A stretch of DNA of 64,000 bases, from the IMG/VR virus record IMGVR_UViG_3300032030_000060, one strand, 5' to 3'. Position 1 is the first letter of the stretch. Each line of letters starts with the position of its first letter. Both the position numbers and the translations under genes were made by a program. The notes beneath the pieces were generated by a model. That model ran no database searches. It was not told the DNA's origin and worked only from the letters and a program-made list of their open reading frames with translations. This document shows, one piece after another, positions 47,166 through 48,087 of this stretch. Origin of the DNA: an uncultured virus (IMG/VR IMGVR_UViG_3300032030_000060). Taxonomy: Duplodnaviria > Heunggongvirae > Uroviricota > Caudoviricetes.

Positions 47166-47666
47166 ATGGCAAAAAAAACCACAGTAAAAACCGCAGCACT
47201 CGGATACAGAACCGTAGGTGCTACTTCAGGCGACTACACTCCGCTTATGGGTGTGTTGAAGGGTCTCACCATTGGACAGGATGAACCCGATTCGACCGAA
47301 ATCGAGGCTGAGTTCTATGACGCTCCGTTCGACATCCTCTATGATGGCAACCCTGTGACGTTCACGTTTGAACTCGCAAACTATGACCTCAGCGAACTCC
47401 CCGCTCTGTTCGGCGGCTCGTATGATTCCCAAACCAATGTGTATGAGGGCGCACCCAATGCTTTCACAAGCGAGCATGAGTGGAAACTTGATTTCCAGCG
47501 TGGCAATGCCTCTCTGATTCTGTATCGTGGTCTCACCGTGGGTACTATCAAGAAGGATGAGGACGGCGCACTGAATTACAGTGTCACCATTACCGCACTG
47601 AACTACACCACCACCGAAAACGGTGTTGAGACAGACCACATGTACAAGATTGTGGGAAACGCATAA
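47166..47666 (+). CDS. major tail (tube) protein
   Basis: Position and size; ends at slippery G GGA AAC GCA TAA. Confidence 0.75.
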   Translation: MAKKTTVKTAALGYRTVGATSGDYTPLMGVLKGLTIGQDEPDSTEIEAEFYDAPFDILYDGNPVTFTFELANYDLSELPALFGGSYDSQTNVYEGAPNAFTSEHEWKLDFQRGNASLILYRGLTVGTIKKDEDGALNYSVTITALNYTTTENGVETDHMYKIVGNA

Positions 47667-48055
47667 CGCCGTATAGCGGAAGAGTTGTCGCCACAAGTCC
47701 AAGTCTGCCTTTCACAAGCACAAATGGTGTGCAAAATTTTGATGTGACGCTGTCAGAAATCACAGCCGCAGACAAAGAGACGTTGAGAAATCTTTCTGTA
47801 GGTTCAGATTTAGGATGGGTGGGTATAAAGAAACCAAGCGATGAGACAGGACAAGCACTGCCATTTACTGTCACAAATGTGACAACAGGTTCTAGTGGGA
47901 GCATCTCTGTAAGCGCAGAAACGCCCACAACCACTACAGAAGATGACGTTGTGTATTTCTCTATACAAGTCGACAATGATGATGTAAGCGTAGAAATGAC
48001 TACGAACATAGTTGCAGACTCATATATAGTTGAGAAATTGCACATTCAGTGGTGA
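47660..48055 (+). CDS. -1 frameshift extension of major tail protein (beta-rich C-terminal domain)
   Basis: The -1 frame is open from the slippery site through ORF 47729-48055. Confidence 0.75.
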   Translation, partial: RITPYSGRVVATSPSLPFTSTNGVQNFDVTLSEITAADKETLRNLSVGSDLGWVGIKKPSDETGQALPFTVTNVTTGSSGSISVSAETPTTTTEDDVVYFSIQVDNDDVSVEMTTNIVADSYIVEKLHIQW

Positions 48056-48087
48056 CACACGCTATACGGCAAAGAACAAAACATTCG

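Follow-up and report, generated by a model that had tools for sequence, protein, structure and literature searches.

For bacteria and their phages, the elements considered to stimulate ribosomal frameshifting are hairpins and pseudoknots close to the slip site or Shine-Dalgarno-like sites upstream of it. Here, we analysed a stretch of 64,000 nucleotides (nt) from an uncultured tailed virus (IMG/VR record IMGVR_UViG_3300032030_000060; the whole stretch is referred to as the window), in which the gene of the major tail (tube) protein ends in a slippery heptamer followed by a long open reading frame (ORF) in the -1 frame. We consider it moderately likely that this arrangement represents a programmed -1 frameshift whose 3' stimulator is a long-range RNA helix.

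Frameshifting is described as the source of C-terminal domains of Ig-like type on coat and tail proteins of phages, and the major tail protein of Listeria phages is extended via +1 shifting; such accessory domains are made by a fraction of the ribosomes, by +1 or -1 shifts, and are thought to move by non-homologous recombination (excerpts of PMC5009743). With these Ig-like domains found on structural proteins of phages (Fraser et al. 2006; tail proteins of the Listeria phages A118/A500/PSA), as far as the excerpts cover them, the locus in the window would share an accessory C-terminal domain that is obtained by shifting; for them, no conserved RNA structure clamping the added domain is known to have been described. 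In SPP1, gp17.1* carries an FN3 domain that is added by a frameshift in a ratio of 3:1 and is dispensable (excerpts of PMC8718954). Judged by this account, gp17.1/gp17.1* and the window locus would be alike in that a frameshift at the gene end adds a surface domain to the C-terminus of a siphophage tube subunit, resulting in two forms of the protein. The domain of SPP1 is FN3/Ig-like, whereas at the window locus the shift would be -1 on a heptamer, a helix spans about 400 nt, and the added domain is not recognisably Ig or FN3. The gp17.1 shift is a +1 shift at the stop codon, and we know of no long-range RNA element at this gene.

The first-pass annotation of the window had stated that frameshift stimulators are normally local. 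This needs a qualifier, as distal elements have already been described in T7 gene 10, in elements of the IS3411 type and in plant viruses: luteo-, diantho- and umbraviruses as well as IS3411-type elements use distant pairing for frameshifting, over kilobases in the plant viruses and over 44-104 nt in the IS elements, and in T7 gene 10 a terminator sequence >200 nt 3' of the shift site plays a part, a long-range effect that by 2016 had been unexplained since 1991 (excerpts of PMC5009743). The window locus would resemble T7 gene 10A/10B, as excerpted, in a -1 shift close to where a structural gene of a phage ends and in a distal 3' element beyond the extension. The T7 gene encodes a capsid protein, whereas here a tube gene is concerned, with a covarying helix of 11-14 base pairs (bp) and a range of about 400 nt; to our knowledge, no pairing partner has been described for T7 gene 10. 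With BYDV, RCNMV, PEMV2 and the 'ALIL' pseudoknots of IS3411-type elements, in the excerpted account, the locus has in common that a region close to the slip site pairs with a distant sequence. In that type, the bulge or apical loop of a local stem-loop kisses a distant loop, whereas here the distant strand forms the helix itself, in the mRNA of a double-stranded DNA phage and with a loop that is exactly the extension ORF. Because a stable local stem is absent, the signal is not a member of the ALIL/luteovirus type and appears closest in spirit to the distal effect of T7 gene 10. A full-text literature search, returning mostly titles and listings, yielded no paper describing a helix that encloses a phage frameshift extension.

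The 3' end of the tube gene reads GTG GGA AAC GCA TAA, with the heptamer in frame. The features at this junction are as follows (L026 and L028 are related lineages introduced below):

47166..47666, plus strand: major tail (tube) protein gene, 166 amino acids (aa) as the 0-frame product; assigned by ORF, position, profile and fold
47654..47660, plus strand: slippery heptamer G_GGA_AAC in X_XXY_YYZ register; the equivalent in L026 and L028 is A_AAA_AAC
47661..47667, plus strand: 7-nt spacer containing the 0-frame stop TAA (47664-66); the spacers of the relatives measure 6-7, 7 and 5 nt
47660..48055, plus strand: -1 frame extension ORF, 131 codons and TGA (48053-55), without a stop from the heptamer onward
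47660..47710, plus strand: region coding for the conserved linker (R-I-T-P-Y-S-G...P-S-L-P), with residues invariant across four extensions

The claims that G_GGA_AAC at 47654-60 precedes GCA TAA and that the -1 frame is open to 48055 were confirmed on the sequence. With tandem slippage, the expected shifted product comprises 165 + 131 = 296 aa. Within 414 nt, the extension frame contains 1 stop versus 8 and 12 in the other sense frames. The tube gene contains two in-frame heptamers (47654-60 and 47171); the second, A_AAA_AAA at 47171-47177 (codons 2-4, in an eight-A run), probably merely reflects the family-conserved Lys-Lys N-terminus.

Three scans of IMG/VR with the tube protein found 99, 86 and 121 relatives, and 80 loci were kept from each. 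The IMG/VR scans, the third of which contributed none, and three loci from genome collections gave 83 distinct gene 3' ends. A long -1 extension occurs in only four distinct lineages among them:

WIN (= L001): the window
L026 (= L111): a contig of a Prevotellaceae metagenome-assembled genome
L028 (= L029 = L115): L115 being a metagenome contig
L077

The other 79 ends have a stop that is followed within about 20-45 nt by a terminator-like hairpin or, in three cases, by a second copy of the tube gene. In all four extension-bearing lineages the -1 extensions are 126-131 codons long and open back to the slip position. A canonical in-frame heptamer 3 nt before the stop is present in 3/4 extension-bearing ends (G_GGA_AAC once and A_AAA_AAC twice) versus 0/79 others; L021, a near relative of L026 without an extension, has GAA AAA ACC at the heptamer position. 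In L026 and L028, a TGA closes the -1 frame immediately 5' of A_AAA_AAC, so that a shift would be possible nowhere else. The extensions share only their N-terminal linker, in which I4, P6, Y7, S8, P16 and P19 are invariant (I..PYS..P..P), and in WIN and L028 this linker lies upstream of the first possible ATG, GTG or TTG start. Its Ser codon is AGC in two lineages and TCG in two, indicating selection on the linker peptide. The frameshift reading of the first-pass annotation is thus supported by the conserved junction linker, the TGA before A_AAA_AAC and the distribution of the heptamer. A -1 frameshift appears by far the best reading, and by sequence criteria the signal would belong to the class of programmed -1 frameshift sites.

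Further cases of the slip/arm arrangement were sought by sequence pattern. The pattern TAYAARATTRTNGGNGAAAAAAAC occurred in 3 viral contigs, all of them already known. The pattern AAACGNATARNGCCKTAT was found at 26 loci, 4 of them known and 22 unrelated, without tube ORF, extension or arms; one metagenome scan returned 5 loci, of which 1 was true (L028 type) and 4 were unrelated and without arms. That loci matching the pattern by chance lack such arms (22/26 and 4/5) counts for the helix. Among 401 genomes of the order around genome G001, the single match was G001 itself. A 24-nt identity between the slip/arm region of L028 and L092, L100 and L109 was rejected as coincidence; it sits inside a 993-aa ORF.

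Downstream of the linker, the bodies of the extensions (about 110 aa) cannot be aligned among the four lineages. None of the four extensions had a Pfam match above cut-off, and a low-confidence single-sequence AlphaFold2 (AF2) model of the extension alone (pLDDT 34.5) contained beta strands only. A HMMER search of 1.84 billion representatives gave two matches: P0001 (80% identical), a 103-aa protein called by gene callers from the equivalent ORF of a relative, and a eukaryotic Ig-repeat protein (E 3.5e-7), which gives a bare hint at an Ig-like fold. Atlas matches of the extension (score 0.83) are leads only. Used as IMG/VR queries, the WIN and L077 bodies returned themselves plus short weak matches and no close relatives. 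The near-constant length of the bodies favours divergence of one fold over an exchange of bodies, and the extension would represent a hypervariable domain of the tail surface, probably an adhesin.

Four segments in and behind the extension ORF form two helices:

47668..47678, plus strand: 5' arm of helix 1, 11 nt, GCCGTATAGCG, a perfect inverted repeat with 48060-70
47686..47694, plus strand: 5' arm of helix 2, 9 nt, TGTCGCCAC, pairing with 48049-57 with one G-U
48049..48057, plus strand: 3' arm of helix 2, GTGGTGACA, spanning the extension stop TGA at 48053-55; placed by pairing and fold
48060..48070, plus strand: 3' arm of helix 1, CGCTATACGGC, non-coding, 5-15 nt beyond the extension stop; its counterparts in the relatives track changes of the 5' arm

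The perfect complementarity of 47668-78 and 48060-70 and the pairing of 47686-94 with 48049-57 across the extension stop had been noted before and hold on the sequence. The arms of helix 1 are separated by 381 nt. Both helices are present in the minimum free energy (MFE) and centroid folds of the RNA from 47640 to 48090, which is more stable than each of 100 shuffles (0/100 as good; z = -3.9); together, the two helices comprise about 20 bp with a duplex energy of -34.9 kcal/mol. Taken alone, an 11-nt inverted repeat at such a range is not unusual: the window contains 12 perfect inverted repeats of at least 11 nt with gaps of 100-600 nt, compared to 9.1 +/- 3.2 in 50 Markov-1 random sequences. 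What appears to go beyond chance is the placement at both stop codons, the adjacent second helix and the conservation with compensatory changes in three other lineages. By simple arithmetic, the complement of an 11-mer would occur in the approximately 20 positions past the -1 stop, with about 5 start positions, at a frequency of ~100/4^11, roughly 2e-5. In the 50-120 nt past the four slip sites, no local structure was more stable than shuffles (z -1.74 to +0.97), leaving the long-range helix as the only candidate stimulator. Rfam 15 covariance models gave no match at E<=1 in 47100-48300.

All four extension-bearing lineages have complementary arms:

WIN: 5' arm GCCGTATAGCG, 3' arm CGCTATACGGC, no G-U
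L026: 5' arm TGCCTTATAGCAA, 3' arm TTGTTATAAGGCA, one G-U
L028: 5' arm GCCTTATTCGGGTA, 3' arm TACTCGGATAAGGC, two G-U
L077: 5' arm GAGCCTTATTC, 3' arm GAATAAGGCTC, no G-U

In each of the four, the helix starts 5-7 nt past the heptamer, that is, 1-4 nt past the 0-frame stop, and its 3' arm ends 8-19 nt past the -1 stop; the 3' strand overlaps the -1 stop or begins up to 12 nt after it. The overall span is 396-401 nt. The helix was obtained in the unconstrained MFE folds of RNAs of about 430 nt from all four lineages, with a pair probability of ~1 in 6/8 sequence contexts and of 0.63-0.93 in a seventh. With 500 nt of upstream mRNA added, the probability was ~1 for WIN and L028 and 0.63-0.93 for L077.

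Pairs were counted on an arm-anchored alignment with gap-free arms (A4), as a full-region MAFFT alignment misaligned the 3' arms. In A4, 79.7% of the 64 cells were paired versus 64.9% in shuffles (0/500 reached this value), and the covariation score was 0.417 versus 0.175 (0/500). Both sides change in 7/16 pairs (reached in 8/500 shuffles), and sliding the partner by 1-3 columns reduced pairing to 31-38%. The three positions at the ribosome-facing base of the helix (GCC/GGC) are invariant in all four lineages. Where codons of the 5' arm change (CCG/CCT and AGC/TCG), the non-coding 3' arm changes with them, and every pair inside the helices that is not Watson-Crick is a G-U on the sense strand. 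When the 3' region was shuffled, the observed duplex energy was reached in 0, 0, 0 and 2 of 1000 trials for the four lineages. These results support the long-range helix as a probable selected RNA structure around four non-alignable domain bodies. The idea, raised in the first-pass annotation, that relatives might keep conserved arms around different domains was borne out in 4/4 lineages, with covarying arms.

Four elements are apparent from the sequence and its comparison: the heptamer, a -1 frame that is open and coding, a junction peptide that is conserved, and a helix that is both conserved and covarying. From these, we infer the shifting itself, the helix as its cause, and its rate. According to the proposed mechanism, most ribosomes would end at the TAA at 47664-66 and release the 166-aa tube subunit. 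A fraction would slip by -1 on G_GGA_AAC and read the conserved linker of about 17 aa and the beta-rich, lineage-specific domain of about 110 aa, and the resulting 296-aa subunit would display this domain on the tail surface. The 3' stimulator would be the helix, with its 5' strand 7 nt past the heptamer and its 3' strand just beyond the extension stop; the whole extension ORF (about 400 nt) would form the loop, and the helix would act like the stem of a conventional stimulatory hairpin. This stimulatory role is suggested by the spacing of 5-7 nt, the invariant G-C-rich base and the absence of a stable local structure. Since most ribosomes would terminate at the TAA, the loop should be largely ribosome-free and able to fold. 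As the 3' strand is non-coding and free to follow changes of the 5' strand, the signal would be independent of the enclosed domain. Each arm is located immediately 3' of a stop codon, so that ribosomes terminating in either frame would have to open the helix; feedback by terminating ribosomes, which had been proposed at the outset, is geometrically plausible.

Several observations weigh against a frameshift stimulated by the helix. Both the shift and its stimulation are deduced from sequence, and a helix that needs about 400 nt of ribosome-free RNA may be slow to form under coupled transcription and translation. L077 lacks a canonical heptamer (TCG GGG GAA TAA; G_GGG_GAA). The probability of the L026 helix dropped to 0.04 once 500 nt of upstream mRNA were added. 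The 5' region of L077 pairs slightly more strongly with the 3' region of L028 (-22.5) than with the one of L077 itself (-20.3), and the L026 and L077 loci contain other 40-nt windows with similar duplex energies. Four lineages are too few for a formal covariation test, the shuffle control ignores their relatedness, and the 5' arm is also constrained through P-Y-S coding. For helix 2 of the window, the other lineages have no counterpart, and it is not conserved in related strains (~88-92% identical). These carry T>A at 47686, which breaks a pair of helix 2 unless compensated, and C>T at 47689, which gives a G-U; among the differences listed for these strains, none falls within 47605-47685.

The region 3' of the extension contains a further structure:

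48087..48128, plus strand: terminator-like hairpin of 14 bp with a 2x2 internal loop, followed by UUUUUU; -24.6 kcal/mol, z = -5.1

This hairpin was not flagged by a simple terminator scan and is visible by folding. It sits just past the 3' arm, and a homologous hairpin follows the tube stop in extension-less relatives. The shared position suggests that linker, domain and 3' arm are an insert between the end of the tube gene and the terminator. A terminator-like double hairpin (GGGG..GCGTT..GGGG-loop-CCCC..CCCC, then Ts) follows the tube gene in nearly all 83 ends, for example about 20-110 nt past the stop in L021 and L034, and often lies between the members of the palindromic motif pair CGTGAACG ... 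CGTTCACG; this conserved double hairpin may be more than a terminator. In a close relative, one contig agrees with the tube gene as far as 47657, a position within the heptamer, and continues with GGTTAA... into the TTTTGTTTTCGTG terminator region without an extension. The breakpoint between cassette-bearing and cassette-less forms would accordingly coincide with the slip site.

The main rival explanation accepts a real frameshift and a selected helix and assigns to the helix a role other than stimulation: it might shield the approximately 390 mostly untranslated nt from endonucleases or Rho loading, provide a double-stranded processing site, or hold the tube-gene stop near the terminator hairpin. 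The last variant fits the extension-less relatives, whose stops lie 20-45 nt from the same hairpin, a geometry that the closed helix restores. The region is unusually structured overall (z = -3.9), and the two helices form a duplex of about 20 bp. Many bacterial slip sites, moreover, function without strong stimulators. An anti-polarity function has little to protect, however, as an intrinsic-terminator-like hairpin follows anyway. None of the variants explains why the base of the helix lies 5-7 nt from the slip site with an invariant GCC/GGC in four lineages, or why any other detectable stimulator is lacking, and we regard a role apart from stimulation as somewhat unlikely.

Alternatively, the arms might be features of the DNA without an RNA role, such as the boundary of an exchangeable cassette, a recombination or inversion site, or an insertion scar. 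The cassette of linker, domain and 3' arm does lie exactly between the last codons of the tube gene and the terminator, and the close relative mentioned above diverges from the window at 47657 and runs straight into the terminator region; a minus-strand ORF of 151 codons (47590-48045) is open opposite the extension. However, the arms vary by lineage yet remain complementary, unlike a protein-recognised site, their mismatches are G-U on the sense strand only, and with 11-14 nt they are too short for homologous exchange between them, which makes an origin of the arms at the DNA level very unlikely. After a hypothetical inversion about the arms, the 151-codon minus-strand ORF would be in register with the -1 frame. 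An inversion switch with an alternative antisense domain was rejected: only the window has an open antisense frame (1 stop), the relatives having 3, 5 and 7 stops. Among the contigs matched to the window, neither a junction at the arms nor a change of strand was listed, which counts neither for nor against an inversion. Least probable of all is that no frameshift occurs and the extension is a separate small gene with an internal start (e.g. GTG 47729) or is unexpressed: although gene callers produce the 103-aa P0001 from a relative's equivalent ORF, and internal starts are hard to exclude in Bacteroidales with their weak or absent Shine-Dalgarno signals, the conserved linker precedes the earliest start codon that WIN and L028 could use, the -1 frame can be followed back as far as the heptamer position in each of the four lineages, and heptamer and extension are correlated, all of which speaks against it.

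If the helix indeed acts as the frameshift stimulator, the locus would offer a clear case, testable by mutation, in which recoding on a bacterial-type ribosome is controlled over a long range. Such a case would illustrate how the signal for recoding stays separate from a fast-evolving domain, and predictors that inspect only about 100 nt downstream of a slip site would miss such signals. The locus would mark a hypervariable tail-surface domain in an abundant group of uncultured Bacteroidales phages of gut and rumen. A further-reaching version, which we put forward tentatively and consider possible rather than probable, is that the helix is a portable 'frameshift clamp', allowing any cassette of about 130 aa to be expressed at a set ratio, with ribosomes that terminate in either frame melting the stimulator. 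In that case, the tail-surface domain would be free to diversify or be exchanged, the traffic of ribosomes on the late mRNA with the heaviest translation would tune the fraction of decorated subunits, and the distal element of T7 gene 10 could be explained along the same lines.

Relatives of the window extend the same tube protein in other ways. In L025, L044 and L051, a diverged second tube-gene copy starting MGKTTVKAIALGYR or MAKKTTIKPIALGYR directly follows the stop, which is a different route to a two-component tube. In many relatives (L002, L005-L012, L018, L020, L024, L042, L046, L110, L194 and others), the C-terminus is lengthened in frame by a tail of about 35-50 aa that ends in ...GKTYY(T/E)K.., resulting in proteins of 202-218 aa, and L058 reaches 258 aa. 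This in-frame tail is a third way to extend the protein.

The genome is of siphophage type, and the tube gene belongs to its late structural module. A capsid-like gene (44011-45276; weak matches to phrog_29 and Phage_cap_E) is separated from the tube ORF at 47166-47666 by four small ORFs in head/neck position. On the 3' side, the tube gene is followed by a chaperone pair (48140-48742 and 48544-48987) and then by a tape-measure-sized ORF of 2155 aa; it thus lies directly upstream of chaperone pair and tape measure, in the position of a tube protein gene. The tube protein matched the profiles phrog_6767 (E 1.1e-11) and, weakly, phrog_117 'major tail protein' (E 0.0054), and a Pfam search with it gave no match. 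An AF2 model from 30 sequences (pLDDT 75.5) gave 6 Foldseek matches in the PDB at E<=0.001, all to chain J of mycobacteriophage Bxb1 (TMq 0.55-0.60), followed by lambda gpV, monocin, SPR, GTA and other tube proteins with probabilities of 0.8-1.0. Gene order, the weak profile match and the fold identify the 166-aa ORF as the tail-tube protein.

The overlap between the two chaperone ORFs is in the -1 frame, open from 48535, and contains T_TTT_TTT / T_TTT_TTA within a run of nine Ts (slip run 48592-48601). This overlap would represent a classical G/GT-type frameshift or transcriptional slippage on T9. The window thus has, just downstream of the tube gene, chaperone ORFs with a T_TTT_TTA overlap resembling lambda G/GT, in which another gene and another purpose are concerned; no long-range helix was seen there, and none was looked for.

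Sequencing runs that contain the window sequence came from sheep and bovine gut metagenomes, and contigs of the phage family reach up to 76-88 kb; the window belongs to a siphophage of approximately 80 kb of rumen Bacteroidales. A contig from an RNA library is identical to 47171-48163, although carry-over of DNA is possible. A search of the phage record collection by DNA gave no match, and by protein a single one, Bacteroides phage C3_41T2LP (35% identity), the only cultured relative, which has no extension and the same gene order as the window. Its tube homologue (L282, OR296439.1, locus 2980-3483) is labelled 'capsid protein' despite its place before the chaperone pair and tape measure, and this label is probably a misannotation.

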